Part shown: piece by piece, positions 11,651 through 27,828 of the stretch
How positions within the stretch are numbered: the stretch's first letter is position 1
How the letters are laid out: every line of letters begins with the position of its first letter
DNA from: Fidelibacterota bacterium
GTDB lineage: Bacteria; Fidelibacterota; UBA2242
Direction: 5' to 3'
NCBI GenBank assembly: GCA_030665885.1
Contig: DAOUYY010000002.1
Span: 5,537 to 37,536 of the forward strand
Length of the DNA: 32,000 nucleotides
Notes under the pieces: model-generated
The model's input: the letters and a program-made list of their open reading frames with translations, nothing else
What the model was told of the DNA's origin: nothing
Database searches by the model: none
Program-made: the position numbers and the translations under genes

Positions 11651-11670
11651 AATTCACCTCCTTTCACCTG

Positions 11671-13275
11671 TTATGCAAGGACTTCAATGGTGTTATACCC
11701 ATAGTCCCGAATTGCAATGATTTGATTAATTTTGTCTTCAATTTCATCCTTTATATTAGATTCACGATACTTTTCCGAATATCGTTTATGCTTTTCATTT
11801 TGCATTTTAGATTTACCAAAATCACCAACCTGAACTTCAAGTGAATTCAGCGCCATTCCTTTTTGAGATAAATTTTCATTTATTATCGGTAAGACTTTTT
11901 CTATTAAATTGCGAATAGTTTCCGATTCTACAATGATAGTTGCCTGATTTCCTATGGAATCCTGTGTAAATTTAATTTCAAGAGAACCTAGTTGTTTCCC
12001 ATCAATAATAAAACTCATCTCAGATATCTGCTTTTCATGTGATTGAAAAATAATCTGAGTAATTTTTTGAACCACCATCGCAGGCAAAAATCCTGTACCA
12101 GTGATTGCCTCATGTGAAATACTATCGTTGAGTTCTACTTGCTGAAGTCCTGAAGAAGGTATAAACCGGGTAGTTCCCGAAATATTTTTATGCGTTCCAA
12201 CAGTAGAAATTTCGTCCCCACTATAAAAGTGTTTCTTATAGATAAAAAATTTCTGGTCGTTTTCAGTACTTCCGATATCTCCTTCAAAATATTTATCATT
12301 ATAGTAATTCTTAACAGTCGATTGTACTTTATTAACACTACACGATTTATTCTGGCTGGTTTTATTCAGTAAATGACCTTTCAAATTTCTAATACTTGAG
12401 ACTAAACCCTTAGTATCTTTTAAATTCTTTGAAAATTTTAATTTTGTGAATTTACTCTTTTCAGACTCGCCCTCTCCGGTTTTTACTACTTTATTAACGA
12501 CTTTTACACCCTTCATTGAATCCTTCGATAAATCTTTTACTGGTTCTCCTAATACACTCTTGACTCTATTCGAGTTACTATAATTATCAATGCATTTACC
12601 TTCTTTGCTGGTTACTGTTGAAATCAGTTTATCATTTTCATCTTTTACAATGAATTTATCACTCTGAATACTTTTAGGAACACCAGATTGAGCGCTTTTA
12701 ATCCTATTCGCCAGGTTATGTTCAGTTGTAGAAATCCGGTTTATAACCTTCGACTCATTTCCCAATCTACTCTTTAAAACATTCTGAGTGCCAGTTTTGA
12801 GCTCATTTACATTATTTCTATTATCTAATCGTATTCCTTTTCTCAATTCTATTTCCGAAACCTGTTTGCTCTTAACATCAGAGATAATTCCTGAATTGTC
12901 AACTTTCACTCTACTGTTATTCACTGTCTGATTATTAAGTGCTTTCAGTTTCGATGGTAATTTTTCACTCAATCCCTGATGAATTAGGTGATCTTTTTTC
13001 GGTTCTTTTCTGTCGAGCATAGATATTTTTTGGTCACTTTTTGATTTCGGTGATCCGGTTAATATCGAATCATTATCCACAATCTCCTGTGATTCACTCA
13101 AAGACGTATTCAGTCTTTCGGAAGGTTCGTGTAAATCAGAGGTTGACTCACCATTAGATTTTATAAGAAAGTCAGCAAAAGGCTTTTCCGTATTTGGCAT
13201 CTGAGCCCCTCCGGAAACTACTAATGCATCAGATTCAATAATTGATACAAATTCAATTTGGGTTTCAGCTTTCAT
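11671..13275 (-). CDS. fliK: Hook-length control protein FliK
   Basis: 534 aa. It has a long low-complexity S/N/K-rich N-terminal ruler region. The C-terminal Flg_hook-like domain is LGSLEIKFTQDSIGNQATIIVESETIRNLIEKVLPIINENLSQKGMALNSLEVQVGDFG. Canonical position before flgD. Confidence 0.8.
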   Translation of the reverse strand: MKAETQIEFVSIIESDALVVSGGAQMPNTEKPFADFLIKSNGESTSDLHEPSERLNTSLSESQEIVDNDSILTGSPKSKSDQKISMLDRKEPKKDHLIHQGLSEKLPSKLKALNNQTVNNSRVKVDNSGIISDVKSKQVSEIELRKGIRLDNRNNVNELKTGTQNVLKSRLGNESKVINRISTTEHNLANRIKSAQSGVPKSIQSDKFIVKDENDKLISTVTSKEGKCIDNYSNSNRVKSVLGEPVKDLSKDSMKGVKVVNKVVKTGEGESEKSKFTKLKFSKNLKDTKGLVSSIRNLKGHLLNKTSQNKSCSVNKVQSTVKNYYNDKYFEGDIGSTENDQKFFIYKKHFYSGDEISTVGTHKNISGTTRFIPSSGLQQVELNDSISHEAITGTGFLPAMVVQKITQIIFQSHEKQISEMSFIIDGKQLGSLEIKFTQDSIGNQATIIVESETIRNLIEKVLPIINENLSQKGMALNSLEVQVGDFGKSKMQNEKHKRYSEKYRESNIKDEIEDKINQIIAIRDYGYNTIEVLA

Positions 13276-13280
13276 TATCC

Positions 13281-13823
13281 CTATCGTGCTCCCGCTAACC
13301 GTTGCGTGATAGCAGCGGCTCTCTCACTTGGAAGTGCTTTAAAAATATCTTTACGTTTTCGGCTATTCATATTTTTATAAATAGCAATTATGGTTCTGTC
13401 ATTAACATTTTTTAATATGGGACGCATTTCATCTGATTTCATAGTTTCATAAGTCTTTGCCAATTCCTGGATACTAACTTTAGTTTTAGTAGCTGCTAAA
13501 ATATCTTTATTGAGCTTATTAATATTCTGCTTATATTGTTCAATCAGACGATTATTAAATCCTATCTGTTCTCTCAAACTGTCATCGGTCAAATTTGAAA
13601 AGAATAGATCACTCTTAAGTTTATTAATTTTATTATTTAAACTATCTATTTCAGTTTGCTTCAGTACTAACATATTTTTTGATATTGTATTACTACTTGC
13701 CGCAACATCAATTTGCATATTATCATCCATTGGTTCTAAAAAGTTTAGTAATAAGAAAATACCTACAATTAAAACAGCAAAGGTACCAAGACCAATACAA
13801 ACCCATGTAACGACTTTTTTCAC
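13281..13823 (-). CDS. YlxF/FlbB-like flagellar protein (TM + coiled coil + MgtE_N-like C-terminus)
   Basis: 180 aa. It has an N-terminal TM segment, a coiled-coil middle and a C-terminus MRPILKNVNDRTIIAIYKNMNSRKRKDIFKALPSERAAAITQRL that resembles the MgtE intracellular N-domain repeat. Same position, between fliJ and fliK, as ylxF in Bacillus-type operons. Confidence 0.65.
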   Translation of the reverse strand: MKKVVTWVCIGLGTFAVLIVGIFLLLNFLEPMDDNMQIDVAASSNTISKNMLVLKQTEIDSLNNKINKLKSDLFFSNLTDDSLREQIGFNNRLIEQYKQNINKLNKDILAATKTKVSIQELAKTYETMKSDEMRPILKNVNDRTIIAIYKNMNSRKRKDIFKALPSERAAAITQRLAGAR

Positions 13824-14296
13824 TGATTATTTCCATTATCTTTATTCTTTAAAATCACACGCAATGCTATCTCACTTTCCTCTTTCATCATCTTCTTTCG
13901 ATAATTGTCTTTATAATTTGTTAGTTGACGTTCGCGTAATTTTTCGACAATTTTCTTCTCTTTAGACGCTTCTATTAGATCATCTCTCTCTTTTTCCACC
14001 TTTCCATTTGACTTTTCCACTACTTGAATTTGGTTGGTAATCCTATTATTTAACTGTGAAATATAATCTACTGTTACTTGAAGTTCATTTAAGGAAAGAT
14101 TAACATCATCAACGTTATCATATTCATCTTCATCGACTTTTAACTGAGCGTCTTTTTTTTGCGCTAAATTTTCTAATTGCTCCTTTTCCTTGTTTAAAGA
14201 CATTTGAGAATTTTTCAATGAAATTGCCTGTCTGTCCTCAGTTATCTGTCTTACATCTAAAACCTTCTGAAGTGGAAAATGAAAGGATTTTGCCAT
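13820..14296 (-). CDS. fliJ: Flagellar export chaperone-like protein FliJ
   Basis: Coiled-coil protein with MAKSFHFPLQKVLDVRQITEDRQAISL, typical of the FliJ N-terminus, directly after fliI. The ORF track extends to a TTG at 14317. I prefer the ATG at 14296 because GGAG (14307..14310) sits about 10 nt upstream of it. Confidence 0.8.
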   Translation of the reverse strand: MAKSFHFPLQKVLDVRQITEDRQAISLKNSQMSLNKEKEQLENLAQKKDAQLKVDEDEYDNVDDVNLSLNELQVTVDYISQLNNRITNQIQVVEKSNGKVEKERDDLIEASKEKKIVEKLRERQLTNYKDNYRKKMMKEESEIALRVILKNKDNGNNQ

Positions 14297-14303
14297 AATT
14301 ATT

Positions 14304-15629
14304 TCACTCCGCATCAACTGCTATCTTTTTTAAATCGGACAACGTTGCTTCAAAACTGGACGATTCATTCATATCCTGTAGAAGAAATTGATTGATCGCA
14401 TCAATATTCTTAATAGCAAGATCAACCTTCGGATTGCTACCTGAGACATAAGCGCCAATATTGATTAAATCTTCAGAGTCCTGGTAATTAGCCAGCATCT
14501 CCAAGATCTTCTGTGTATATTTATTCTGCTCTACAGAGGTAACTTCATTCTTTAATCGACTAATGCTCTCAAGAACGTCAATAGCAGGGTAATGTCCCTT
14601 TGTTGACATTTTTCGTGAAAGGACAATATGACCGTCAAGTGTTGCTCTCGATGCATCGCTAATAGGTTCATCCATATCATCGCTTTCTACTAAAACTGCA
14701 TACAAACCCGTGATACTTCCAACCTGATTTGTTCCAGCTCTCTCGAGCATTCTTGGTAACATAGCAAAAACTGATGGTGTATAACCCTTAGTTGTTGGTG
14801 GCTCTCCAGATGCCAATCCAATCTCTCGTTGCGCCATTGCCACTCTGGTCAGGGAATCCATTAGCAGCATTACATCCTTTCCCTGATCTCTAAAATATTC
14901 TGCAATAGATGTGGCAATCAGAGTTCCCTTAATCCGAACCATAGCCGCCTGGTCTGATGTAGCAACTATAACAATAGAATGTTTTAACCCTTCTTCTCCC
15001 AAATCTCGCTCTATGAACTCCCGAACTTCACGACCTCGTTCACCAATAAGCGCGATAACATTGACATCAGCATTTGTATATCGTGCTATCATACCAAGCA
15101 AAACACTTTTTCCTACCCCACTTCCGGAAAAAATTCCCACTCGTTGACCTTTGCCAACTGTAACCAATCCGTCAATAGCTCTAATTCCCGTCGTGAGAAC
15201 CTCTCTGATTCGCTGACGTTTAAGAGGATGAGGTGGAGCATTATAGACATGGCATCTATTTTTAGCATGGATCGGTCCCTTGCCGTCAATCGGATTTCCC
15301 AATCCATCTAAAATCCTACCAAGAAGTTCTGGACCCACTAGAACTGATAATGGTAAAGGACTTCTACTAACCCGGTTGCCAGGCGAAATCCCGACCGTTT
15401 CATCCAATGGCATTAAAAGAACTTTATCTCCACGAAATCCAACAATCTCTGCCCTGATCACATCTCCGGACCTTGTATAGATTTCACACAGTTCCCCAAG
15501 TGTGCCATCCGGTAAATTAGCCTCGATAACAAGCCCCACAACCTGAGATACTCTGCCATCTATCCTGGTGGGATTCAAGAGTCCCACTTGATTCGTATAA
15601 GATTCAAATCTTTGAGTTAGTGCATTCAA
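14304..15629 (-). CDS. fliI: Flagellum-specific ATPase FliI
   Basis: 441 aa. Walker A is GIFSGSGVGKS and the Walker B region is DVMLLMDSLTRVAMAQREI. There is strong FliI/YscN-family similarity throughout. Confidence 0.97.
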   Translation of the reverse strand: MNALTQRFESYTNQVGLLNPTRIDGRVSQVVGLVIEANLPDGTLGELCEIYTRSGDVIRAEIVGFRGDKVLLMPLDETVGISPGNRVSRSPLPLSVLVGPELLGRILDGLGNPIDGKGPIHAKNRCHVYNAPPHPLKRQRIREVLTTGIRAIDGLVTVGKGQRVGIFSGSGVGKSVLLGMIARYTNADVNVIALIGERGREVREFIERDLGEEGLKHSIVIVATSDQAAMVRIKGTLIATSIAEYFRDQGKDVMLLMDSLTRVAMAQREIGLASGEPPTTKGYTPSVFAMLPRMLERAGTNQVGSITGLYAVLVESDDMDEPISDASRATLDGHIVLSRKMSTKGHYPAIDVLESISRLKNEVTSVEQNKYTQKILEMLANYQDSEDLINIGAYVSGSNPKVDLAIKNIDAINQFLLQDMNESSSFEATLSDLKKIAVDAE

Positions 15630-16342
15630 TTCGATCCAATCTCTAAAATCTGTTTTTCAAGGTTATCCAACTGTCTTGATAAAACCCCTTCTTCAATAAA
15701 ATTTTCTGTCTCAAGTACACATTCTCCAGGCTTCAATTTGCTATTTCCAACAAAACCTACACTGGCTTTCGATGCCGAGCTCATTTCCTTAAGAATATCC
15801 ACTTTGGAAATCCAATCTACCTGATTTGGATTCATGTAAATAGTTATTTTGCTCTGATCTACTGCTTCCTTTAAAAATTGTTTGATCTGCCCAATAAGGA
15901 ATCCATTACATTTTTTCGTGTTGTGAAGTTCCATACCAAGAATCTTCTCGGCAACCTTCATCGCAAATTTTAGCAACGGCTTGTCCATTCTCTCCAAAGT
16001 TTGATCATATTGTACCTTCAATGATTGAATAATAGAGCCGAAATCATCAGAGACACTTTTCAGCTCCTTTTTTGCTTCTATTTGGGCAACTTCTTTCCCC
16101 TCTTCGAAACCAGCTTGAAAAGCTTCTTCCCTTGCGCTCTGTAAAGCGGATTCAAGCTCATGAATCTGTTTCTCAAGAATAATAACTTTCTGATTATTAT
16201 CAATCGGAATAGATATATCAGTTCTACCCCCATTCCCATCTTGTCCTTGAACTCTATCATCTAAAATATTCATACTTGATGCCATTATAGAGCTCTGGAA
16301 TCCAACTACTTTCTTCTTGAGATGTAATATAGCCGCTGTCAT
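15626..16342 (-). CDS. fliH: Flagellar assembly protein FliH
   Basis: 238 aa. It has a coiled-coil N-terminal half with the EEAFQAGFEEGKEV motif and a C-terminal FliH-like domain. It overlaps the fliG stop and the fliI start by 4 nt each. Confidence 0.8.
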   Translation of the reverse strand: MTAAILHLKKKVVGFQSSIMASSMNILDDRVQGQDGNGGRTDISIPIDNNQKVIILEKQIHELESALQSAREEAFQAGFEEGKEVAQIEAKKELKSVSDDFGSIIQSLKVQYDQTLERMDKPLLKFAMKVAEKILGMELHNTKKCNGFLIGQIKQFLKEAVDQSKITIYMNPNQVDWISKVDILKEMSSASKASVGFVGNSKLKPGECVLETENFIEEGVLSRQLDNLEKQILEIGSN

Positions 16343-17355
16343 TCTATGATTTCCTCTTCTTCACCGTGACTGATAACAATTTGTCCGGAATCTTCCAGAC
16401 TGTGTACTACATCTAGGATTTGCTTTTGAGCGGCTTCCACTTCCCGCACCCTGACGGGTCCAAGATACTGTAATTCGTCTTCCAACATTTCCGCTGCTCG
16501 TTCTGTCATATTCTTTAAAATCTTGTCTTTCAATTCCTTACTTGTTGCCTTAAGAGATAATGCCAAAGTCTTTGAATCGATTTCCTTAACAATCTGTTGA
16601 ATTGCCTCATTATCAAGTTTTACAATATCTTCAAACAGAAACATCAGGCTGTTGATTTCATTCGATAATTCGGAATCCCTTTCTTTCAAACTTTTTAAAA
16701 TATTTTTCTCCGCAGTGCGACTTGTAGAGTTTAAAATTTCTGCTAACGCTTCAGTTCCACCTGCCTTACTGAGATTACCACCTAATACCGTCCCGATCTG
16801 ATCGTGCAATGCCAATTCAATGTCCCGGATCAACTCAGGGGATGTTTTTTCCATCGTTGCAATCCTAAAGGCTATCTCACTTTGAGATTCTTCGGGAAGT
16901 TCTGACAAAATTGCAGCAGCCTGGGGAGGTTTCAGATTTGCGAGGATCAGAGCAACTGTCTGTGGATGCTCATTCTGTAAAAAATTGAGGAACTGCTTGT
17001 CATCTACTGTCTGTAGAAGATGAAATGCGCTAACTTCAGTTACCGCTTCTACATGTTTAATAATTTCTTCAGCCCTCTTATGCCCCCACGCATTCTCGAG
17101 AACTTGCTTTGCGTAATCAAGCCCGCCCCTAACAATATATTGATTTGCCTGCATCATTTGGTAAAACTCATCAATGGCCTCTCCCAGAACCTCAGCAGGA
17201 ATATCTTTCAACCTGGCAATTTCTATTGTTACCTTCTCGATTTCATGCTCTGTAAAATTTTTCATTATATCTGCTGCATTTTGCGTTCCCATAGCGATTA
17301 AAACCAATGCAGCCTTTTGAATTTGAGAAATCTTTTTAACTTTTTCTTCTGCCAT
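16339..17355 (-). CDS. fliG: Flagellar motor switch protein FliG
   Basis: 338 aa. QKAALVLIAMG is the N-terminal motif, and MFLFEDIVKLD is the M-F-x-F-E-D motif. The C-terminal torque-helix domain is present. Confidence 0.96.
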   Translation of the reverse strand: MAEEKVKKISQIQKAALVLIAMGTQNAADIMKNFTEHEIEKVTIEIARLKDIPAEVLGEAIDEFYQMMQANQYIVRGGLDYAKQVLENAWGHKRAEEIIKHVEAVTEVSAFHLLQTVDDKQFLNFLQNEHPQTVALILANLKPPQAAAILSELPEESQSEIAFRIATMEKTSPELIRDIELALHDQIGTVLGGNLSKAGGTEALAEILNSTSRTAEKNILKSLKERDSELSNEINSLMFLFEDIVKLDNEAIQQIVKEIDSKTLALSLKATSKELKDKILKNMTERAAEMLEDELQYLGPVRVREVEAAQKQILDVVHSLEDSGQIVISHGEEEEIIE

Positions 17356-17358
17356 TTC

Positions 17359-18939
17359 TTAACTACTATTTTTCATTAACCAAGAACGAATTAACTTAGC
17401 TGCATCTTCGGAATTTGATTTAGCATAATCTATTACTTCGCTTGTCATCTTATTTTTTGCTTTCAATTTCGCTCTGGCTTCGGCACTGAGTTTCTTGATA
17501 TACAAATCTTCTGAAATGTATTCCTCTTCTTCTGAATCTATTGTTTTTTGATTTTGAGTTTTCCCGATCATCTTTTTCTTTTCCACACCAGGCAGATTTA
17601 ATATAACGTTAGAAGTCTTTAGCAATTTTTTCAAAAGAAAAAATACCACCAAAACTCCAATACCAACAATTCCCTTATTTATAATACCTGCCCACATTGC
17701 GTTTTTTTCTGCCTTGATAAAATACTGCTCATCGGTTTTTAAATCACTTTTATCAAATTTCATATTTTTTACCTCAACGATATCTCCTCGTTCCTCGCTA
17801 TATCCAACAGCACTCTTTATAAGTGCTGTAATCTGCTCCAGATCTCTATTACTCCAGGGAACATATTGTTCAACTTTCTTCCCATTCTCATCCTGAGCTA
17901 CCTTATATGTCCCATTAACTATAGCTGCCACCGAGATTTCATCTATTGTCCCCGTATTGCCCACATAATGTTCTACCGTCTTATTTAATTCATAGTTAGT
18001 AATGATATTTTCTCTATCATGTCTCTCTCTAGTAGAAGTCGTGTCCATATTCGTAGATGATTCCGTGTGTGACTCTTCACTAATTATCGCCACATTATCC
18101 GGATCAATTGATTCTGTTGTTCTATCAATCTGCTCGAAATTAAGTCCTACAGACACTTCAACAATAGCATTATTATTACCGACAATACTTTCAATGATAC
18201 CCATAACTTTTTTCTGGAGCTTTGCCTCAATTCTATGACGGAGGTCCCATCGATTTCCTACTGAACCGAGGACGATATCTTCATTCTGATTCTCAGATAG
18301 AAGTTTTCCATCAGAATCCACAACTACCACGTTCTGTGGCTCAATACCTTCTACACTATTGGAGATCAAAGCAGAAATCCCTTTCACTTGATCTGTACCG
18401 AGGTATCTGCCTTGCTGGAGATATAATACAACGGCGGCAGAACCTTTCTTTTTCTCTCCAAAAAGTCTCTCCCCAGGAAGCACAAGATGAACACGGCTAT
18501 TTTTTATTTCAGAAAACTGATTGAGTGTTCTGGTTAATTCTCCTTCAAGCGCCCTTTGCATATTCAATTGCTGCATATATGTGGTCATTCCGATTTTTGC
18601 ATTATCAAATATTTCATAACCTAATATTGCCTTACCAACATAACCAGATTCAGCAAATTGCAACCTCAGCTCTGCCACTTTCTCACCGGGAACTTTGATT
18701 GTCGTGCCATTATGTTCGAGCTTATATTTTATCTTCTTCCCCCTCAGATCGCTGACGATTTTTCCTGCGGTTGAAGGATCCAAATCTGTATATAATATCT
18801 CATACTCAGGACGGTTTGCCCAAACTACGAGAGCAATAATAGACGAAAGTATCCCGATAAACACTATGATAATGACTATTTTCTGTCCTAAAGAATACCG
18901 TTCAAGCAATTTCCCGATTTGCTTAAAAGCTTGATTCAT
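17359..18939 (-). CDS. fliF: Flagellar MS-ring protein FliF
   Basis: 526 aa with an N-terminal TM segment. The YscJ/FliF ring-building region is LYTDLDPSTAGKIVSDLRGKKIKYKLEHNGTTIKVP. It also has a second TM segment and a C-terminal FliG-binding tail. Confidence 0.95.
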   Translation of the reverse strand: MNQAFKQIGKLLERYSLGQKIVIIIVFIGILSSIIALVVWANRPEYEILYTDLDPSTAGKIVSDLRGKKIKYKLEHNGTTIKVPGEKVAELRLQFAESGYVGKAILGYEIFDNAKIGMTTYMQQLNMQRALEGELTRTLNQFSEIKNSRVHLVLPGERLFGEKKKGSAAVVLYLQQGRYLGTDQVKGISALISNSVEGIEPQNVVVVDSDGKLLSENQNEDIVLGSVGNRWDLRHRIEAKLQKKVMGIIESIVGNNNAIVEVSVGLNFEQIDRTTESIDPDNVAIISEESHTESSTNMDTTSTRERHDRENIITNYELNKTVEHYVGNTGTIDEISVAAIVNGTYKVAQDENGKKVEQYVPWSNRDLEQITALIKSAVGYSEERGDIVEVKNMKFDKSDLKTDEQYFIKAEKNAMWAGIINKGIVGIGVLVVFFLLKKLLKTSNVILNLPGVEKKKMIGKTQNQKTIDSEEEEYISEDLYIKKLSAEARAKLKAKNKMTSEVIDYAKSNSEDAAKLIRSWLMKNSS

Positions 18940-18967
18940 CGAACCATTTCCTTATATGTTGCCAAGA

Positions 18968-19285
18968 TTATACCGGCATCCGTTTTATTTCGTTATATGA
19001 CTCTACTAATTTATTTCTGATTTCCAACATCAATTGGAAGCTTAGGTGTGATTCTTCCAGACATACCATTGCCTCAGCAAGGTTTTCTGATCTTCCCTGA
19101 ATAATATCCGCAACTTTTTCAGTTGCTTCTTTCTGACTATTATTCACTGCTGTGAGAAAATTTTTTATCGTATCGCCAAAATTTACTGATGCAGTTTCCT
19201 TTTGATCTTTACTGATCTTTTTAAATTGATCTCTCTCTAATCCTACCAGCTGATTTATTTGAGATAATTCACCTACTTTTGACAT
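18968..19285 (-). CDS. fliE: Flagellar hook-basal body complex protein FliE
   Basis: 105 aa. FGDTIKNFLTAVNNSQKEA ... LEESHLSFQLMLEIRNKLVESYNEIKRMPV matches the FliE consensus (..vRNKlveAYqEImrMqv). GGAGGAAC lies before the ATG. Confidence 0.93.
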   Translation of the reverse strand: MSKVGELSQINQLVGLERDQFKKISKDQKETASVNFGDTIKNFLTAVNNSQKEATEKVADIIQGRSENLAEAMVCLEESHLSFQLMLEIRNKLVESYNEIKRMPV

Positions 19286-19293
19286 AGTTCCTC

Positions 19294-19584
19294 CTATCCA
19301 ATTAGATCCAGAAAACGCCCTTTGTGTATCTGATGAGTTTTACTCTGGCCATAAAACATTAACTCTCCTGGCTTCTCAAATCCAAAAAGCACCTTTAAAG
19401 TCACCATCTCTGTGGAAGATAGTACTTTGCTGGCAGGTACTGATTCCTTTGCTTTCAGATTAATCTGATTCTCTGCTCTGGTGGACTGTATATCAGTACT
19501 GTACCAACCTTTTATCTGAGTATCTAATTGTTTATATGATTTCTCTGTTATATGATTATTCTGAACAGGTGTAAAAATTTCCAT
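19294..19584 (-). CDS. Hypothetical 96-aa protein inserted between flgC and fliE
   Basis: Complete ORF with an AGGGAAGA Shine-Dalgarno directly upstream. It has 8-11-nt gaps to both neighbours and is co-oriented with them. I recognise no family. No TM segment or signal peptide is evident. Confidence 0.6.
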   Translation of the reverse strand: MEIFTPVQNNHITEKSYKQLDTQIKGWYSTDIQSTRAENQINLKAKESVPASKVLSSTEMVTLKVLFGFEKPGELMFYGQSKTHQIHKGRFLDLIG

Positions 19585-19595
19585 TCTTCCCTATC

Positions 19596-20093
19596 CTATA
19601 TCTTTAATGTATTCTTGGCTATCTGTTTTGCAGCAGTCATTACACTGACATTTGCCTCATAGGCACGGCTTACTGAAATCATCTCAACCATTTCTTCCAA
19701 AATATTTACATTTGACATATTCACATATCCATTTTCATCTGCTTGAGGATTAGACGGATCATAGATTCTCTTTACACCTTCGATCTCTACTACTTTTAAC
19801 TGCTGTTCTTCATTATTAGAATTAGATATAGAAAATCCAGGTTGCTTTATCCCTGATAAATGGCTTGAATTTGATTTCCGGAGACTTAAAGTCATATGAT
19901 CTCCAAACTCTCTGGGAGATCGAACAGATGGATTTAATTGTTTAACCACTTTTCGTTGATAGACATTTCCTTTATTATCAGCCACTCTCTCGGCATTTGC
20001 AATATTTTCAGAAATAACCTCAAGCTTCTTCATCTGAGTAAGCAGCCCCGAGAAACTGGTTTTAAGTGTTGAAAAAATTCCTTCTACATTCAT
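19596..20093 (-). CDS. flgC: Flagellar proximal rod protein FlgC
   Basis: 165 aa. The N-terminal motif is LEVISENIANAERV and the C-terminal motif is GYVNMSNVNILEEMVEMISVSRAYEANVSVM. It is roughly 20-25 aa longer than a typical FlgC because of a central S/N-rich insertion. Confidence 0.92.
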   Translation of the reverse strand: MNVEGIFSTLKTSFSGLLTQMKKLEVISENIANAERVADNKGNVYQRKVVKQLNPSVRSPREFGDHMTLSLRKSNSSHLSGIKQPGFSISNSNNEEQQLKVVEIEGVKRIYDPSNPQADENGYVNMSNVNILEEMVEMISVSRAYEANVSVMTAAKQIAKNTLKI

Positions 20094-20106
20094 ATTATAT
20101 TACCCC

Positions 20107-20487
20107 CTATCGATTTTTACCGATTATACTCGTCTGCAAAGCCCTGTAGTATCTACCAAGTACCCGGGAAACGAATTCGTGTCTAATCTGATTCTCTGCT
20201 AATTCTGCCATTTCTCTTGTGATGTCAACTTTTCCTCCATCTTTCTTTTCACCAGTACCTCCCCTATCAAATTTGGAAAACGCTATATGCTTTTCACTAG
20301 TAACTTTTAAATTTGACTGAGATGAAACGGATTTTAACACATTGGAAAAATCGGTATTAGTTCTATTGTAATCAGGGTTATTTGAATTAGCTACATTTTG
20401 AGCAATAGCCTTGTTCTGCTTTTGATAAGTTTCAAGAGCCTTTTTCATTAACTCTGCTTTTTCTGTATTAAATAGATCAATCTTCAT
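20107..20487 (-). CDS. flgB: Flagellar proximal rod protein FlgB
   Basis: 126 aa. The rod N-terminal motif is AIAQNVANSNNPDYNR and the C-terminal motif is DITREMAELAENQIRHEFVSRVL. It is the first gene of the structural block. It has no Shine-Dalgarno, which is consistent with a very short leader. Confidence 0.9.
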   Translation of the reverse strand: MKIDLFNTEKAELMKKALETYQKQNKAIAQNVANSNNPDYNRTNTDFSNVLKSVSSQSNLKVTSEKHIAFSKFDRGGTGEKKDGGKVDITREMAELAENQIRHEFVSRVLGRYYRALQTSIIGKNR

Positions 20488-20504: not shown

Positions 20505-20520
20505 CTCAATTACTATGCCA
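20505..20520 (-). promoter_or_regulatory. Sigma-54-like -24/-12 promoter element upstream of flgB
   Basis: The minus strand reads TGGCATAGTAATTGAG (TGGCAT-N5-TTGA). The -12 element ends 17 nt before the flgB ATG. Positions 1-6 and 12-15 are identical to the elements at 6308..6323 and 27656..27671. Confidence 0.55.
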
Positions 20521-20669
20521 TATGCTCACATTTGTTCAATCGGGATTCAATTCAACAATTCAACAACAACCGTAAATTCTTTATTACCAATATGCTATTG
20601 ATATATAAATGAATAAATTATAGCCAAAAAAAATTGATAATCTCTCTTAATGAATGCCGTATTGTGACA

Positions 20670-20682
20670 GGAAATTATTTCC
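20670..20682. promoter_or_regulatory. Perfect 13-bp palindrome GGAAATTATTTCC; candidate enhancer (UAS) for the flgB promoter
   Basis: Perfect dyad GGAAAT-T-ATTTCC, 149 nt upstream of the sigma-54-like element. The left flank ACA-GGAAAT is shared with the 6647 copy. It sits in the intergenic region next to the sigma-54 EBP gene. Confidence 0.55.
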
Positions 20683-20713
20683 AATCTGTGGTGAAATTGT
20701 CCACCACTAATAA

Positions 20714-21081: not shown

Positions 21082-22452
21082 TTAAGTGTTTCCATTAGGC
21101 TGTGTATTTTCCTTTTCATATTGATGAAGCTTGTTCCTTAGTGTCCGTACACTAATATCCAATATATTAGCTGCCTGAGTACGATTATTTTTGGTACTTT
21201 TCAAGGTATTATAAATCAGCCTTTTTTCCATTTCCGCAATCGAAATTAGCTTTTCTTCAAAATCATTACCTTCGACTTGAACCTGATCCTGCTCTATACA
21301 AAAATGCTCAAGTGTAAGCGTTTCCTCCTTACCAGAATATAAAATTGCCCTTTCCACTATATTCTCCAGTTGGCGAATATTCCCTACCCAATCCTGACGG
21401 ATTAAAAAATCGAGAGTCTCCTTACTTACTATTTTATTTTCATATTGATATTCTTTACGAAATTTCTCGATAAAGTGGTTTAATAATACCGGTATATCCT
21501 CTCTCTTTGACTTGAGGGGTGCCACTTTGATAGGAAATACATTCAATCTAAAAAAGAGATCCGATCTAAATTTTTGTTCCTTGATCAATTTTTTGATATT
21601 TCTGTTCGTCGTAGCAATTATCCGAACATCAATAGGAATCTCTTTAACGCTACCCACTCTCGTGATCTTACCTTCTTGAAGTACACGTAATAATTTTGCC
21701 TGCATAGAAATAGGTATTTCGCTGATCTCATCAAGAAGAAATGTTCCACCATCTGCTTCTTCAAAAAAACCTTTATACGTTTTAATGGCATTGGTAAAAG
21801 ATCCCTTTTCATGCCCAAATAGAGTGCTTGCAAATAACGTCTCAGGAATTGCAGAACAATTAACCTTTACGAAAGGTCCTTTAGCTCGTTCACTATTGTA
21901 GTGAATTGCCTCTGCAATAAGTTCTTTCCCTGTTCCGCTTTCCCCCAGAATAAATACTGGTGCATCACTCCCGGCTACAATATCAATCTGATGAAAGATA
22001 TGCTGCATTGACTTGCTCTTACCCACCAATTTATTAAATCTATCATTATACGATAGTTTACTTTTTAGTATCTTATTTTCTTCTCTAAGATTCTCATAGT
22101 CAAAAAATCGTTTCACTCTCGATTCAATATGAGACAAAGAAAATGGTTTTGTTATAAAATCAAAAGCACCCTTGTGTAGTGCTTCAACGGCTGTTTTAAT
22201 AGTACCATAAGCAGTGATGATTAAAAAAGCAATATCGGGATCACTTTTTTTAACAAATTCCATCAGCTCAATACCATTCATTCCTGTCATCATCAAATCT
22301 GTAATCACTAGATCATATTTTTCTGCCTTCAGGATCTCTATAGCAGACTTTGCAGATTCAACAGACTTCGCTTCATACCCATTTTTATTAAAATATTCCT
22401 GTAAAATCGATCGGATACTGTAATCGTCATCAACCACAAGCAGTCGCTTCAT
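21082..22452 (-). CDS. Sigma-54-dependent response regulator (REC + AAA+ sigma-54 activator + Fis-type HTH; NtrC/FlrC/FlgR class)
   Basis: 456 aa. The REC domain has DDD at 8-10 and the acceptor region YDLVITDLMM. The AAA+ domain has Walker A GESGTGKE, Walker B FLLDEI and a sigma-54 contact loop GSFTNA in place of GAFTGA. The C-terminal HTH is RTQAANILDISVRTLRNKL. Confidence 0.93.
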   Translation of the reverse strand: MKRLLVVDDDYSIRSILQEYFNKNGYEAKSVESAKSAIEILKAEKYDLVITDLMMTGMNGIELMEFVKKSDPDIAFLIITAYGTIKTAVEALHKGAFDFITKPFSLSHIESRVKRFFDYENLREENKILKSKLSYNDRFNKLVGKSKSMQHIFHQIDIVAGSDAPVFILGESGTGKELIAEAIHYNSERAKGPFVKVNCSAIPETLFASTLFGHEKGSFTNAIKTYKGFFEEADGGTFLLDEISEIPISMQAKLLRVLQEGKITRVGSVKEIPIDVRIIATTNRNIKKLIKEQKFRSDLFFRLNVFPIKVAPLKSKREDIPVLLNHFIEKFRKEYQYENKIVSKETLDFLIRQDWVGNIRQLENIVERAILYSGKEETLTLEHFCIEQDQVQVEGNDFEEKLISIAEMEKRLIYNTLKSTKNNRTQAANILDISVRTLRNKLHQYEKENTQPNGNT

Positions 22453-22597
22453 AAGTTACTTTTTTCCTCTACTTCTTAAAGAGTGCTGATTGAGAAAATA
22501 TTTCCTAATACTCAAATCTCTTGTTTCTAAATTAACTTAACGAAACATCATATCCAAAAAAATTATGATCGTTCAATCAGAACAAACTATAGCATAT

Positions 22598-23221
22598 TTA
22601 ATCTTTTCGATCACTAATTTTATCCTTCTTCTCAGATACATTATCGAGTAGATTTTTCTGATAAGAACGGAGAACTGCTTCCTTATTAACCTGTAAGCTA
22701 TTATATTTATCGGACTTTACATGAATTCTGTTTTCGGCTGGAATTAAATCTTCAAGCATTCCTTTCAATTGTTTGTTCTCTTCTTTAAGCTTCTGAATGA
22801 TCTCTAAACTGCTTTGACTCTCGTATCTCAATTGAAGTTCTTTCCTGGCTCTCTCTATTATTGTAACTATCTGTATGATCTTAAAAGGTTTTATCAAGTA
22901 ATCATAAGCGTGATGTCTCAAAGCTTCTATCGAACTTTTAATCCCGGGATAACCCGTAATAAAGATAACAATAACTCCGGGATTATATTTTCTAATTTCC
23001 ACACTGAGATCGATTCCATTCATATCCGGTAAACAGATATCAATTAATGCGAACTGAAATTTTTTCTTATTTGCAATATTTAAGGCTTTCCCGGCATTTA
23101 CTGCAGCTAGAATCTTATATCCATATTCCCTTAAACCCATCTCGAGAACCCGTAGAATTGGCTCATTGTCATCAACAACCAGTAATGTTCTGTTTCCGGT
23201 GTCCATGTCACTCCTTACCAT
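22598..23221 (-). CDS. Response regulator receiver protein with a C-terminal coiled-coil tail (no recognisable output domain)
   Basis: 207 aa. The REC domain shows LLVVDDNEPIL, ALIDICLPDMNG and IKPF. A heptad-like K/E/L-rich tail follows. It abuts the upstream REC-GAF gene with a 1-nt gap. Confidence 0.85.
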   Translation of the reverse strand: MVRSDMDTGNRTLLVVDDNEPILRVLEMGLREYGYKILAAVNAGKALNIANKKKFQFALIDICLPDMNGIDLSVEIRKYNPGVIVIFITGYPGIKSSIEALRHHAYDYLIKPFKIIQIVTIIERARKELQLRYESQSSLEIIQKLKEENKQLKGMLEDLIPAENRIHVKSDKYNSLQVNKEAVLRSYQKNLLDNVSEKKDKISDRKD

Positions 23222-23222
23222 A

Positions 23223-24617
23223 TCATTTAATTTTTCCTCTGTGCATATCGGATGAAATTTTATCCAATTTATTAAATAGGCTACTACCCAATCCGTTTAT
23301 AATATCCTCAGCAGAATTCGCATCAAGTGGATAGGACATGATGACATATCTCACTGATAGTATTGGACTGCCTTTCTCCCCTATAAATAATTCTTCAATC
23401 TTTGTCCTGACACTCGCACAAGACAGTTCAATAGTTACCGGATTCCCCCCGAATACAATAATGAAGATTGAATCAAAGTTCTGCCATATTATCTCCGAAG
23501 TCGAGTCAAATTCATCCTCAACGATTTTCTTGTAGGATTTTTTCAATTCCTCAAGTGATGGAAAATTTTCACTTTCAAAACTATAAACCAACCTGATTGA
23601 CGCAAATGTAACTGATTTTTGCATTCTTTTTGCATACATCATTTTATCACTGATCATGTTATAAAATGCTCGCCCATAAGAATCACTAGTCAGTAATAAT
23701 TTTTCTCCGTATTGCTTTTCCGACTGGAAAATCGGTGCAATTTGAGTAGTCATAATGTTCAGTAGTTTTATTTCATCCTCTCTCGAAAAAATATCTTGTT
23801 CAACTTTAAATATTCCCATATATCCGAGTAACTTCCCAAGATACCGAATGGGAGCCAATACACATTGGTTTAAACGATTATCCCATTCAAGATTATTATT
23901 ATCAATTATTATCCCATTTTCAATATTAAAAAAAGTAGTTGTCTCTATTGATGAAATTTTTACATCATTTATTTTACTCTCAACCTGGAATATAAATTGG
24001 TCAACAAATCTATCGGAAAGTCCCCTCTTTTTAATTATTCTAAAAGTACCGGATGATTCATCACATAAAAACACTCCCGCTTTCTCAATTTTCATACCTT
24101 CTGCAAGCGTATCCAAAATCATATCAACTACCATATCAAAATCGGATACCTGATACAAAATGGTACTTATATCATACAACATTGTGATATTTGTCAACAT
24201 TTGTTGAATTTTATTATTAAGTGCAATATTTTCCCGTTTTAGATAAATCTTTTCGGCAGCTCGGTCTAATATGATTTTAATTTCTTGAAATTTGAAAGGC
24301 TTGCGAACATAATCGTAAACTCCGTACTGTATTGCCTCAATGGCTGAATCTATTGTAGCAAAACCAGTCATGACGACAATCTCTGTATCACGACCTTTTT
24401 CATTTACTGCTTTGATGATGTCCAACCCGGAGACATCTGGCATTTTCAAATCTGTAAGAACAATATCGTATGCATTTTTATTTATATATTCAAGTGCCTT
24501 TTTTGAGTCCGATAATCCGGTAATTTCATATCCAAATTCACTAAGAAAAAACGAAAGTTGATCAACAATCATTTGCTCATCATCTATTATTAATACCGAA
24601 GAATTATTTGATTTCAT
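23223..24617 (-). CDS. Response regulator with REC + GAF-like + degenerate GGDEF-like domains
   Basis: 464 aa. The REC domain shows VLIIDDEQ, IVLTDLKMPDVSG and RKPF. The GAF-like middle covers about aa 140-300. The C-terminal region aligns by eye to the GGDEF fold, but QNFDS replaces the GGDEF/GGEEF motif (..IIWQNFDSIFIIVFGG..). Confidence 0.7.
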   Translation of the reverse strand: MKSNNSSVLIIDDEQMIVDQLSFFLSEFGYEITGLSDSKKALEYINKNAYDIVLTDLKMPDVSGLDIIKAVNEKGRDTEIVVMTGFATIDSAIEAIQYGVYDYVRKPFKFQEIKIILDRAAEKIYLKRENIALNNKIQQMLTNITMLYDISTILYQVSDFDMVVDMILDTLAEGMKIEKAGVFLCDESSGTFRIIKKRGLSDRFVDQFIFQVESKINDVKISSIETTTFFNIENGIIIDNNNLEWDNRLNQCVLAPIRYLGKLLGYMGIFKVEQDIFSREDEIKLLNIMTTQIAPIFQSEKQYGEKLLLTSDSYGRAFYNMISDKMMYAKRMQKSVTFASIRLVYSFESENFPSLEELKKSYKKIVEDEFDSTSEIIWQNFDSIFIIVFGGNPVTIELSCASVRTKIEELFIGEKGSPILSVRYVIMSYPLDANSAEDIINGLGSSLFNKLDKISSDMHRGKIK

Positions 24618-24622
24618 ATAAT

Positions 24623-26020
24623 CTAACCTTTCGTCTCAAGCATTTTTTCAATCAAGATCTCTTCTTCCTTTCTATAAATTTCAACCCCTTGAAACATGTT
24701 CTCAATGTAGTATTGTGCGTGGCCAATAGATATAGTAACACCCTTGTATAATTTACCTCTAACTTTAATAGACCTGTCATGATCGAAGCTATTTATACTA
24801 ACATCAACACTTTTTTTCTGACTTTCTAATTTCTGAAAATGCGTTTTCAAGTTCTTAATTTTTTCCCCGATTTCCTCAAGTTCTTTACATTTTTCAGCAG
24901 ATAATGATATAACACGTTCCCGTAAAAGCTTTAGAAACGCTTCTCTTTTATTTAGCAGTGAAAGCCTTGATTCAAGATCTTCGATCTCCTTGATATTCAA
25001 TTTTTGCGAATCCACTTTATAATAGTTATTTCCCCCGATTCCAAGCTCTGTGGGTATATTGTTTGTAGAACCAACTTCAAGCACTTCAATTCCCTGATCC
25101 CCAAAAGTTTTGCCTCCGCGAATCAGCCCTTCATTCTGCAAGAGAATCACTTTCTCACCAGAAAAAATACTACTGTTGATTAAATAATGTTTAATAACAA
25201 CATCTTTCTTTACACTAACTGTTGCATCCTGAATAAATCCAGCACGAAGACCTCCTCCGGCTAATATTTTTGCTCTTCCCTTTCCCAGAATTCCCAATTG
25301 AACAATTACATCACCCCTTTGAGAATAAATATCCGACGCTCCAACGTTCCCTTTAATATATATTGAATCTGTCGCTTCAACTCTAAAACCTGATCGGACA
25401 TCTCCTTCAATTAGAATTTTTCCAGCAAATTTCACATTCCCCGTGCTAAAATCGACATCCCCTTTGATGTGATAAACGTTATCTACATGTACTTTACCAG
25501 ATTTTAAAAAAACATATCCATCTATTTTAGAACAAAGTGTCAATCCATCAGCAGAAATTATAGCGTTATTACCAGATGGAAGGATTATATCTTCGCCAGC
25601 TGAGAATATCGTTTCTCCCATCACATTTTTCCCATCTTCTCCATCAGTTGGAGGTAGCTTCGATACGATACTCTGACCTTTTTTAACACGAGTGAATTGT
25701 CTTATCTGTTTGAAATCTGCTTTCCCATGCTCTGTAATCATTGGTTTAGAGGAAGAACTCAGATTCAAATACCAAACCAACTTTGCGTTTTCACCCTTAA
25801 TTGGGGGTTTTCCGCTTGCAAAAATCATCTCATTAACGGGATGTCTATCAGAAATGATTTTAGTAATTACCTGTTTATTTTCACCATAAAGAACTCCGGC
25901 TTTACGGATAGTGTTGTAAATTTCCTTATCGGAAGGGAATTCCTCTTCTCCCTCTGCGATCGAGATTTTCGCCTCCAATTTGTCCTCAGAAATGGTGATT
26001 TTAATATCTTTCATTACCAC
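24623..26020 (-). CDS. FapA/DUF342-family protein (flagellar assembly protein A-like)
   Basis: 465 aa. The N-terminus is IKITISEDKLEAKISI...KEIYNTIRKAGVLYG. The central beta-helix repeats are GDVDFSTGNVKFAGKILIEGDVRSGFRVEATDSIYIKGNVGASDIYSQRGDVIV. The C-terminal coiled coil is typical of DUF342. Confidence 0.85.
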   Translation of the reverse strand: MVMKDIKITISEDKLEAKISIAEGEEEFPSDKEIYNTIRKAGVLYGENKQVITKIISDRHPVNEMIFASGKPPIKGENAKLVWYLNLSSSSKPMITEHGKADFKQIRQFTRVKKGQSIVSKLPPTDGEDGKNVMGETIFSAGEDIILPSGNNAIISADGLTLCSKIDGYVFLKSGKVHVDNVYHIKGDVDFSTGNVKFAGKILIEGDVRSGFRVEATDSIYIKGNVGASDIYSQRGDVIVQLGILGKGRAKILAGGGLRAGFIQDATVSVKKDVVIKHYLINSSIFSGEKVILLQNEGLIRGGKTFGDQGIEVLEVGSTNNIPTELGIGGNNYYKVDSQKLNIKEIEDLESRLSLLNKREAFLKLLRERVISLSAEKCKELEEIGEKIKNLKTHFQKLESQKKSVDVSINSFDHDRSIKVRGKLYKGVTISIGHAQYYIENMFQGVEIYRKEEEILIEKMLETKG

Positions 26021-26068
26021 TGTTAGATTTGGGAATAAATCTCTTGAAAAAATAGTCCATTCAAATAA

Positions 26069-26365
26069 TCATGAGCCTTTTATTTTCTTAGAGGATTCCC
26101 GAGTTTTCATATATTCAAATCGAATCTTTGCAACTTTTCCACACGAACACTTGTGAACTACTCCTATTATTTCTCCGTCCTCAACAATTGGCTTAATTGA
26201 TTCATTTTCCTCATCTTCAAAATCAGATTCATCAATTTCAACTTTTAACGGAGACTGCATATTGACTAATTGAGTTTTAATAACTGTATGTTTTGGAGAA
26301 GATTTATGTTTTATTCCGGAAATTCTATCATCTAAGAAAGGTTTAAATTCTTTATCCATTTCCAT
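26069..26365 (-). CDS. Hypothetical 98-aa protein (acidic centre, C-terminal CxC beta-hairpin-like tail)
   Basis: ORF in frame with upstream decayed sequence. It has an acidic run EIDESDFEDEENES and then IIGVVHKCSCGKVAKIRFEY. I recognise no family. No clear Shine-Dalgarno is present. Its coding status is uncertain. Confidence 0.4.
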   Translation of the reverse strand: MEMDKEFKPFLDDRISGIKHKSSPKHTVIKTQLVNMQSPLKVEIDESDFEDEENESIKPIVEDGEIIGVVHKCSCGKVAKIRFEYMKTRESSKKIKGS

Positions 26366-26510
26366 ACTATTAATATCTTCTTTTTTTAGGAGAGACCATA
26401 ATGAACTGTTCCATCTCCGACATTACATATCATAGAGAATAATATTCTTAAAAAAATTATGAAATTTATCCCCTAAATATATATCCTTTCCGTTTAGATA
26501 AATCAAATTA

Positions 26511-26654
26511 TCACTTTTCTTCCATTTTCTTCAAAACGTCCAGACCACTCTCAGCCTCAGTAATATTACTAAATCCAATTTTCTTAAGTGAATTCATTAT
26601 AATTCGTCTAATTGTTGGTGAATCATCGACAAAAAGCACTTTTTTATCCAGCAT
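26511..26654 (-). pseudogene. Truncated CheY-like receiver fragment (47 codons); likely a decayed REC gene
   Basis: The minus strand reads MLDKKVLFVDDSPTIRRIIMNSLKKIGFSNITEAESGLDVLKKMEEK*, which covers beta1-alpha1-beta2-alpha2 of a REC domain only. AGAGGAAAGAA lies before the ATG. Downstream, REC-like pieces appear in other frames (IILYD, then MSEMEQF, then SLLKKED). It is below the ORF-track size cutoff. Confidence 0.55.
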
Positions 26655-26720
26655 TTCTTTCCTCTTTCTTTTTCAAAACTACGATGTTTATCTCAATCTT
26701 TCACAAACCAAACTCTTTTC

Positions 26721-27623
26721 TTAAGTCTGCAACAGATCGACCATTTTCTTGATTGTCTCCAATTCATCCTCGAGTCCAGATACAAAGCTCTCAAAATCTA
26801 CTCCATCTAATCTCTTAAATTCATTTTGTAGAATTTTCCACCCATCTTCGCTTTGAGGAATTGAACTATCATACTCAGTCCCAAAATTAATAGATTTGAA
26901 ATTGCACACCATATCCGCTATTTGCAGCAAAGACACACATACCTTAAATCTGTAATCAGAAATCTTCTCCGGGTGATGATGATATCCGATAGCATTTATT
27001 ACTTCTTCAGTCATTTTCCACCTCTCAGCAATCCACATACCCACATCTGAATGGGTAACACCAAACACCTCTTTCTCAGCAACAAAACTGGAACACCTTT
27101 TGTTGTTTGCCAGTTCAAAGGATTCAATATAACATTCCGGGTCAATACGATAGAGAACTAATTTTCCAATATCATGCAAAAGACCAAGAGTATAAAAACT
27201 AGTCTGTGTGGGATATTCCAACCCTTCAACCACTAATTGAGCAACATACCCACATGCGACCGAGTGTTTCCAGAATTGCTTCCAATTGAGATTATAACCT
27301 CCAATATCGTGACTTAATTCCTTGATAACCGAAAAACTGAAAGCGATGTTGCTAAGTTCTCGCATACCAATAATAACAATGGCATGCCGTAATGACTTTA
27401 CATCTGTTCTCATACCATAATAGGCAGAATTAGCAATTTTCAAAACTTTCATCGCAAGGGGTGGATCTTTTTCCATAATAGGTAATAATTGGCTTACAGA
27501 AAGATTGTCCTCACGTGAAGCTCGAAGTATTTCTGTCGCTATTATAGGCAAAGTCGGCAAAGTCGTTAAAGAAAAGATCTGATCCCTATAATATTCAGGA
27601 GAACGGTTTTTCTTAATAGTCAT
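26721..27623 (-). CDS. HDOD domain protein (paralog 2)
   Basis: 300 aa. LPTLPIIATEILRASREDNLSVSQLLPIMEKDPPLAMKVLKIANSAYYGMRTDVKSLRHAIVIIGMRE is the HDOD signature. It is followed by HD-like GLLHDIGKLVL and HH residues. Confidence 0.88.
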   Translation of the reverse strand: MTIKKNRSPEYYRDQIFSLTTLPTLPIIATEILRASREDNLSVSQLLPIMEKDPPLAMKVLKIANSAYYGMRTDVKSLRHAIVIIGMRELSNIAFSFSVIKELSHDIGGYNLNWKQFWKHSVACGYVAQLVVEGLEYPTQTSFYTLGLLHDIGKLVLYRIDPECYIESFELANNKRCSSFVAEKEVFGVTHSDVGMWIAERWKMTEEVINAIGYHHHPEKISDYRFKVCVSLLQIADMVCNFKSINFGTEYDSSIPQSEDGWKILQNEFKRLDGVDFESFVSGLEDELETIKKMVDLLQT

Positions 27624-27655: not shown

Positions 27656-27671
27656 GTCAAATAACATGCCA
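27656..27671 (-). promoter_or_regulatory. Sigma-54-like -24/-12 promoter element upstream of the HDOD gene 26721..27623
   Basis: The minus strand reads TGGCATGTTATTTGAC (TGGCAT-N5-TTGA). It ends 32 nt before the ATG. This is the third copy of the same architecture. Confidence 0.5.
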
Positions 27672-27815
27672 AAAATCGTAGATCATAGTTTCCACATTCA
27701 TATTAAATCAAAGTTACCAAAACATTAAAAATCTCTTTTATTGATCCATCCATTCAAATATTTCTTATATTGAAAATTCTACTTTTGATATGGGAATATT
27801 TTACCACCCCAGCCC

Positions 27816-27828
27816 GGAAATAATTTCC
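27816..27828. promoter_or_regulatory. Perfect palindrome GGAAATAATTTCC (15 bp with its C/G flanks); candidate enhancer (UAS)
   Basis: CGGAAATAATTTCCG lies 144 nt upstream of the sigma-54-like element at 27656..27671. The 13-bp core is identical to the copy at 6647..6659. Confidence 0.5.

Follow-up and report, generated by a model that had tools for sequence, protein, structure and literature searches.

In Caulobacter crescentus, FlbD, an enhancer-binding protein (EBP) composed of a receiver (REC), an AAA+ and a helix-turn-helix (HTH) domain, binds palindromic ftr enhancers that lie some 100 bp ahead of the sigma-54 promoters of flagellar genes, and controls middle and late genes below CtrA. 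Vibrio (FlrA/FlrC) and Pseudomonas (FleQ/FleR) employ two EBPs in a tiered cascade, in which the master regulator, FleQ or FlrA, is without the phospho-acceptor Asp. FlgR of the FlgS/FlgR-sigma-54 system, which controls rod and hook genes in Campylobacter and Helicobacter, needs no DNA-binding domain (that of H. pylori lacks one) and works with no defined enhancer; the early genes, i.e., fliF, fliG and those of the export apparatus, lie outside its regulon, and epsilonproteobacterial promoters keep TTGC at position -12. Here, we analyze a 32,000-nt stretch of a Fidelibacterota contig (the “window”; 36% G+C), which carries a flagellar and chemotaxis gene cluster with all genes on the minus strand. 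A promoter-like 15-mer, TGGCAT-N5-TTGA, and an upstream palindrome (dyad), GGAAAT-N-ATTTCC, recur together in front of three of its operons: flgB-motB, fliL-flhB, and a regulatory operon that begins with an HDOD gene and ends with the gene of an NtrC-family EBP.

This two-part module is real, conserved and not a product of chance. TGGCATNNNNNTTGA matches the window three times, where 0.09 matches are expected from shuffles and none of 100 shuffles reached three, and GGAAATNATTTCC has three matches against an expectation of 0.01; all six elements are intergenic, and the 15-mers lie on the minus (gene) strand (Table 1). A first-pass annotation of this DNA had located the same six elements and held three copies to be no accident, which the counts bear out. 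It had also listed no further TGGCAT-N5-TTGA and a single TGGCAG variant inside motA, and indeed the sole other TGGCA-N6-TTG in the window is this variant, TGGCAGTAGCGTTGA at 7940-7926. Most probably, the three 15-mers are sigma-54-dependent promoters which, each with its upstream activating sequence (UAS), join the flgB-motB, fliL-flhB and HDOD-EBP operons into one regulon. That the promoters depend on sigma-54, which protein binds the dyad, that the circuit is autoregulated and where transcription starts are inferences, set out below.

The module was followed through about 90 related loci (1.45 Mb) from Marinimicrobia, Calditrichota and Hatepunaea, comprising loci fetched around activator orthologs (L001-L007 and L088-L091), 80 species-level genome loci fetched around FliM, and three close loci from a metagenome scan with FlgC. 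In this comparison of orthologous loci, which the first-pass annotation had proposed, promoter and dyad are both conserved. The 15-mer upstream of flgB is the same in L004 and L092 and reads TGGCATAACAATTGA in L005, TGGCACATGGCTTGA in L088 and TGGCACAATAATTGA in L093, and the orthologs of the HDOD 15-mer are TGGCATAATATTTGT (L001), TGGCATATTATTTGT (L004) and TGGCATATCATTTGA (L006). Upstream of fliL, the pattern [TC]GGCA[CT]-N5-TTG[AGT], with N5 as the one spacing searched, was matched in 42 of the 80 species loci (41 once a doubtful site in L062 is dropped); in the loci without a match, fliL usually comes directly after motB, with no intergenic gap. A matrix of 59 non-redundant sites, in which TGGCA and TTG are fixed by the pattern while the purine pair after TGGCAY and the T before TTG are free, gives TGGCA followed by T (38) or C (21), A (33) or G (23), A (25) or G (20), two positions of A or T, then T, TTG, and a last base that is A in 39, T in 9, G in 6 and C in 5 sites. 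The two positions after TGGCAY are purines in 56 and 45 of the 59 sites, respectively, and T precedes TTG in 46. This logo equals the published extended sigma-54 consensus (YTGGCACGrNNNTTGCW) at all informative positions save -12: it shares the TGGCA block with its GG doublet at -24 (TGGCAT at all three window sites), the purines that follow, the TTTG run, and the fixed spacing, with TTG 11 nt, i.e., one helical turn, after the T of TGGCA at the three window sites; in 41 species, a match with this spacing stands at the corresponding position before fliL.

The exception at -12 leaves some room for another reading, in which TGGCAT-N5-TTGA is the site of a different sigma factor (a Bacteroidota-type -33/-7 sigma-A, sigma-28, or an extracytoplasmic function sigma factor) or an operator. 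The GC doublet at -13/-12 is missing in the window, where all three sites read GA; no RpoN box was found in six-frame translations of any fetched locus (loci only, not whole genomes); and TTTG, being T-rich, looks like the last part of the -7 consensus of Bacteroidota, TAnnTTTG, Marinimicrobia being placed in the FCB group. Nevertheless, we consider such a reading very improbable. With both blocks inside 15 bp and a single helical turn between them, a -35/-10 or -33/-7 spacing does not fit, and the position that needs T in TAnnTTTG is A or G in 56 of the 59 sites. With no sigma-28 consensus present and sigma-70-type matches no commoner than in shuffles, Bacteroidota-type -33/-7, sigma-28 and sigma-70 promoters were ruled out by spacing, by the misfit of the logo to TAnnTTTG, and by the shuffle-level frequency of sigma-70 matches. 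Moreover, canonical TTGC occurs behind the same dyad in sister lineages, and the gene of a sigma-54 activator is syntenic. The sigma-54 promoter proposed by the first-pass annotation is thus supported comparatively, the 59 sites giving TGGCA(T/C)-RRWW-TTTG-N.

At -12, the first-pass annotation had described GA in place of GC as an unusual variant, and the comparison extends this to the whole lineage: the base is other than C in 54 of the 59 sites. In the Calditrichaceae loci L090 and L091, however, the same dyad is followed 110-154 nt on by a canonical GC promoter, TGGCATAACGCTTGC or TGGTATATGAATTGC. The fliP promoter of L030 is TGGCACGCTATTTGT, and L030 and L091 come from one assembly; therefore, one genome uses both C and T at this position. 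Upstream of fliP, Calditrichota have TGGCAY-N5-TTGT and Fidelibacterota have TGGCACGGAGTTTGC in five genomes (L072-L075 and L079); the fliP site of Caldithrix abyssi (L042), a cultivable species, is TGGCATAATATTTGT. Since C or GC sites occur behind the same dyad in sister lineages, -12 is relaxed within the regulon and not re-specified; it is a lineage-wide relaxed position with no new specificity. In an in vitro library study of Pseudomonas putida sigma-54, TTGAAT and TTGCAT were recovered as the two core -12 motifs, and the P. putida flgB promoter reads TTGGCA/TTGCTA (PMC11997794). The relaxed -12 base agrees with this in vitro result, in which TTGA works as a -12 element.

Upstream of the promoters, the dyad shows the behavior expected of an enhancer. 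In related loci it was searched as GGAAA-N3-TTTCC with at most one mismatch, and such a dyad is found 138-409 nt upstream of 39 of the 42 fliL promoters of other species, the background being 0.15 sites per kb, which amounts to some 0.07 for each upstream region. The enhancer role assigned to the palindrome by the first-pass annotation is thereby supported; the distance of about 100-150 bp that it had cited for such sites needs one correction, as dyad and promoter, measured start to start, are 162 nt apart at flgB and 157 nt at HDOD but 336 nt at fliL (Table 1). The 1.45 Mb hold 60 pairs of dyad and promoter, 57 of which are correctly oriented before flagellar or chemotaxis genes (fliL 39, fliP 6, and HDOD, flgB and fliK 4 each). 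This co-occurrence supports the earlier proposal that flgB, fliL and the HDOD gene belong to one regulon, and extends it to fliK and fliP in other lineages. Overall, the distance from dyad to promoter runs from 97 to 409 nt, and such variation is expected of an enhancer. The inner bases of the dyad swap symmetrically between species, GGAAAT.ATTTCC for GGAAAA.TTTTCC, which fits a site read by a dimer. At flgB, the dyad recurs in L004 and L093, in L005 as GGAAAAATTTTCC, where a symmetric change leaves the dyad intact, and in L088 as GGAAATATTTTCC, and related dyads precede the HDOD operon in L001, L004 (two sites), L006, L090 and L091.

The enhancer consensus is GGAAA-N3-TTTCC, to which the logo of the 57 sites adds a weaker GGAAAAW half-site 20 nt upstream of the dyad (-20 to -14 in the logo). 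Tandem sites and variable distance are typical of NtrC-type enhancers. In the window, each dyad has a second element nearby (Table 1), and the auxiliary box at flgB is probably a second, weaker activator site. A by-eye check between enhancer and promoter for the consensus of integration host factor (IHF) found no exact WATCAANNNNTTR. Ahead of the EBP gene, a dyad copy with one mismatch was considered as an internal operator and ruled out, since L001, L004, L005, L006 and L088 show no clear conservation of it. In the five Fidelibacterota genomes mentioned above, TGGCACGGAGTTTGC lies 24 nt upstream of a fliP-like gene, at about +2600 from the fliM start, and no GGAAA-N3-TTTCC dyad occurs within 450 nt of these fliP promoters, so that this lineage may rely on another activator or enhancer.

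Other non-coding repeats exist in the window, so that the two motifs might be conceived as parts of a repeat, of mobile sequence or of a leader RNA element, with no role in transcription start. This is extremely unlikely: conservation is confined to the 13-mer and the 15-mer, with free divergence of the intervening and flanking sequence, their distance ranges from 97 to about 400 nt, and the 15-mer at flgB lies upstream of any plausible transcript. An RNA element was also ruled out by an Rfam search of the window, which returned no family match.

If the 15-mers are sigma-54 promoters and the dyads their enhancers, the protein encoded at 21082-22452 is the candidate for the activator. The first-pass annotation had read it as a REC-AAA+-HTH sigma-54 activator, and the domain search agrees: the receiver (PF00072) has DD at residues 8-9, the acceptor D52 in LVITDL and K in ITKPF, the Sigma54_activat domain (PF00158, E = 5e-69) has the Walker A motif GESGTGKE and the Walker B motif LLDEISE, and an AAA_lid and a C-terminal HTH_8 (PF02954) follow. 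Its scores (in bits) remain below the NCBIfam cutoffs for FlgR (348.8 versus 750), FlbD (345.2 versus 750), AtoC (438.3 versus 714), NtrC (413.7 versus 558.6) and also ZraR; it is therefore an unnamed NtrC-family response regulator. The closest homologs are annotated as belonging to Candidatus Marinimicrobia/Neomarinimicrobiota, and remoter ones to Hatepunaea, Calditrichota and “FCB group” metagenome-assembled genomes.

The L1 loop, with which EBPs contact sigma-54 and whose motif is GAFTGA, reads GSFTNA in the window EBP (window 21800-21820, residues ~212-217), with F3 and T4 retained. Among 120 EBP orthologs (P0001-P0120), the loop is G[AS]FT[NSH]A in 100, G[AS]FSGA in 18, and GAFTGA and GSFTTA in one each; two loci with G[AS]FSGA orthologs were checked, L090 and L091, and group with Calditrichaceae. 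According to Francke et al. (PMC3162934), the substitutions A2S (LevR) and T4S (BkdR) are functional and changes of G5 to N, S or H are putatively functional, and FlgR, like the window EBP with its N, has this Gly replaced, by D. As judged from these substitutions, the loop is unusual but would be within the expected tolerance. Two ideas connecting loop and promoter were rejected. An exclusion of C at -12 across the lineage is ruled out by one assembly of the GAFSGA lineage that has both TTGC and TTGT. The same assembly speaks against covariation of the L1 loop with the -12 base, and so does the lone GAFTGA ortholog (P0036, in L088), which still has TTGA.

Is this EBP the protein that binds the dyad? 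We infer that it is, from co-occurrence and gene context: it is the sole protein with a DNA-binding domain in the conserved, module-bearing operon, the dyad adjoins an EBP ortholog in every such locus fetched (seven species), and no second EBP gene was found in the 1.45 Mb of related loci. The alternative is that the sigma-54 promoters are real and the dyad is bound by another protein, either a further EBP whose gene lies elsewhere or an ordinary repressor or activator. In its favor, the link between EBP and dyad is one of co-occurrence, the half-site spacing of 8 bp from centre to centre is short for a dimer of Fis-type HTH domains, and the canonical Fidelibacterota fliP promoter lacking a dyad within 450 nt implies that promoter and dyad can occur apart. 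Given the gene context, we regard this alternative as distinctly unlikely and retain the EBP as the proposed dyad binder. As to its kinase, L004, a close relative, has two extra genes separating the EBP gene from flgB (12693-16020), one for a hybrid histidine kinase (PAS-HisKA-HATPase-REC-Hpt) and one for a single-domain REC protein, and the hybrid kinase is a candidate for the cognate kinase of the EBP. A PAS histidine kinase is also found nearby in L090 and L091.

Compared with the systems outlined at the beginning, the locus shares features with each and coincides with none. As with FlgS/FlgR, a response-regulator EBP and sigma-54 would drive a flgB-type basal-body and hook operon, and the FlgR model covers the EBP over its full length; however, its score is far below the cutoff, so that it is not an FlgR ortholog, and it differs from FlgR in its HTH_8 domain, in its strongly conserved dyad, and in that the predicted regulon takes in the early genes, i.e., fliF, fliG and those for export. 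In FlrA/FlrC and FleQ/FleR, sigma-54 and NtrC-family EBPs likewise activate fliE-fliF, flgB and flhA-type operons from upstream sites, whereas here one phosphorylatable EBP appears to serve all operons as well as its own, and GGAAA-N3-TTTCC is unrelated in sequence to FleQ boxes. The FlbD/ftr system offers the same combination of a REC-AAA+-HTH EBP with palindromic enhancers upstream of sigma-54 flagellar promoters, but the EBP scores below the FlbD cutoff, the ftr sequence differs, and the Caulobacter promoters are canonical, unlike those of the window.

A further peculiarity concerns the start of the flgB mRNA. The distance from TTGA to the flgB ATG is 18 nt in the window, L004, L092 and L093, 15 nt in L005 and 16 nt in L088. 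The gene is without a Shine-Dalgarno sequence, which most genes of the window have, and an earlier start codon is excluded by the TGA of TTGA, which is a stop in the same frame; the N-terminus of the product is about as long as that of Escherichia coli FlgB. With a start about 12 nt after the -12 element, the flgB leader would be only 3-7 nt long. The first-pass annotation had placed the ATG about 8 nt from the predicted start, and this fits: the ATG would be at about +8 if the A of TTGA is -12, and the short leader recurs in five species. A nearly leaderless flgB mRNA with no Shine-Dalgarno sequence is thus predicted.

Taken together, the following mechanism would operate. Sigma-54 RNA polymerase would wait in a closed complex on TGGCAY-N5-TTGA until the EBP is phosphorylated on Asp52 by a kinase. 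Phosphorylated EBP dimers would then bind GGAAA-N3-TTTCC and the weaker site about two helical turns away and form an AAA+ ring, which could contact the polymerase via DNA looping and open the promoter using ATP, and transcription of flgB would start about 12 nt after TTGA. Because the EBP gene is the last of a target operon headed by the HDOD promoter, positive autoregulation is likely; a basal promoter would fit into the gap of 145 nt that precedes the EBP gene. Since the targets include the rod, MS ring, C ring, export apparatus, hook and stator, the EBP would be a top-level flagellar regulator, not one of a middle tier.

Several points weigh against this interpretation. Besides the RpoN result given above, the window promoters do not have C at -12, a base which hardly varies among characterized sigma-54 promoters, and the L1 loop departs from GAFTGA, so that its function is a prediction. 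The half-sites of the dyad are closer to each other than those of classical NtrC sites, and a Rayleigh test for helical phasing of the enhancer-promoter distances gave no convincing peak near 10.5 bp. The instance counts come from genomes of shared ancestry and do not represent independent events, and the start sites are predicted from the sequence.

The gene order of the HDOD operon recurs in L001, L004, L005, L006, L088, L090 and L091, the equivalent operon of Calditrichaceae (L090 and L091) consisting of cheY, a cheZ-like gene, a small gene, FapA, REC, REC and EBP. In the gap between the HDOD gene and orf98, the window retains a remnant of a cheY-type receiver of 47 codons (MLDKKVLFVDDSPTIRR..., 26511-26654, minus strand). 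Relatives have an intact cheY (~125 aa) and a CheZ-like gene (207-223 aa) there; accordingly, this genome has lost the cheY and CheZ-like genes by deletion. A terminator-like hairpin, CCGTTATAATGACGG (27827-27841), directly abuts the HDOD enhancer dyad and may end the upstream cheD-HDOD-cheY-cheX operon. Between flgC and fliE, every relative examined has a conserved gene, 96-101 codons long, for which neither Pfam nor NCBIfam gave a match (window 19294-19584; L004 17360-17650; L005 12805-13110; L088 7094-7387). The flgE-motA gap (433 nt) contains a non-coding 125-bp unit repeated 2.1 times with 88% identity (8561-8825). Two non-coding repeat copies of about 240 bp lie between the 3' end of a histidine-kinase gene and a REC-PAS gene (31290-31760) and hold GC-rich hairpins (CCTGTCTGCCGACAGGCAGG); the open reading frame listed at 31368-31631 is probably spurious.

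Table 1. Predicted regulatory elements of the window and the genes and operons they are proposed to serve.
Feature	Position	Strand	Description
flgB promoter, -24/-12 type, predicted	20506..20520	-	TGGCATAGTAATTGA; predicted +1 near 20494; flgB ATG 20487
flgB enhancer (UAS) dyad, predicted	20670..20682	.	Perfect 13-bp GGAAATAATTTCC, 162 nt upstream of promoter
flgB auxiliary box	20690..20702	-	GGACAATTTCACC, starts 20 nt upstream of dyad; kept in window, L005 and L093, two changes in L004
fliL promoter, predicted	6309..6323	-	TGGCATAAATTTTGA; predicted +1 near 6297; fliL ATG 6210; leader 87 nt with Shine-Dalgarno
fliL enhancer dyad, predicted	6647..6659	.	GGAAATTATTTCC (gene strand), 336 nt upstream of promoter
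fliL upstream half-site	6668..6679	-	GGAAAAAGAGAG, starts 20 nt upstream of fliL dyad
HDOD-operon promoter, predicted	27657..27671	-	TGGCATGTTATTTGA; predicted +1 near 27645; HDOD ATG 27623
HDOD-operon enhancer dyad, predicted	27816..27828	.	GGAAATTATTTCC (gene strand), 157 nt upstream of promoter
HDOD second degenerate site	27793..27805	-	GGTAAAATATTCC, starts 23 nt downstream of dyad start (promoter side); AAAATATTCCC part kept in L001
One-mismatch dyad copy, rejected as operator	22493-22505	- (gene strand letters)	GGAAATATTTTCT, 41 nt upstream of EBP start codon
NtrC-family EBP, proposed dyad binder	21082..22452	-	REC + Sigma54_activat + AAA_lid + HTH_8; last HDOD-operon gene
flgB operon	6992..20487	-	flgB, flgC, orf96, fliE, fliF, fliG, fliH, fliI, fliJ, orf180, fliK, flgD, TIGR02530 gene, flgE, motA, motB
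fliL operon	258..6210	-	fliL, fliM, fliN, fliO, fliP, fliQ, fliR, flhB; runs past window edge
HDOD (regulatory) operon	21082..27623	-	HDOD, truncated cheY, orf98, FapA, REC-GAF, REC, EBP; upstream of flgB

The general view of sigma-54 systems is unchanged by these observations: the switch is best seen as a familiar one, the flagellar regulon of sigma-54/NtrC type, and the phyla that have it here, Marinimicrobia (SAR406) and Calditrichota, are ones on which the searched literature contained nothing about sigma-54, flagellar or gene regulation. What is distinctive is the new enhancer consensus, the relaxed -12 base and the short flgB leader, the last predicting a near-leaderless sigma-54 transcript. 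A bolder and rather doubtful proposal is that Marinimicrobia and Calditrichota place a single phosphorylatable, self-activating EBP atop flagellar control, with a sigma-54 control centre that has drifted on both sides (a free -12 base, mostly A, and Gly5 replaced in nearly the whole EBP family) and with an almost leaderless flgB mRNA. If true, it could mean that the fork-junction lock is weakened, so that initiation is leaky or gated in another way, or else that a sigma-54 paralog is reserved for flagellar genes, as in Rhodobacter. All four bases at -12 behind one enhancer form a natural series, which would be useful for asking how this position tunes activator dependence. Marinimicrobia and Calditrichota are abundant and largely uncultured phyla of marine and sediment habitats; for them, the analysis offers a concrete regulon with a promoter logo, an enhancer logo, a candidate regulator and target operons, and the motif pair could be used to annotate the boundaries of flagellar operons in metagenome-assembled genomes.

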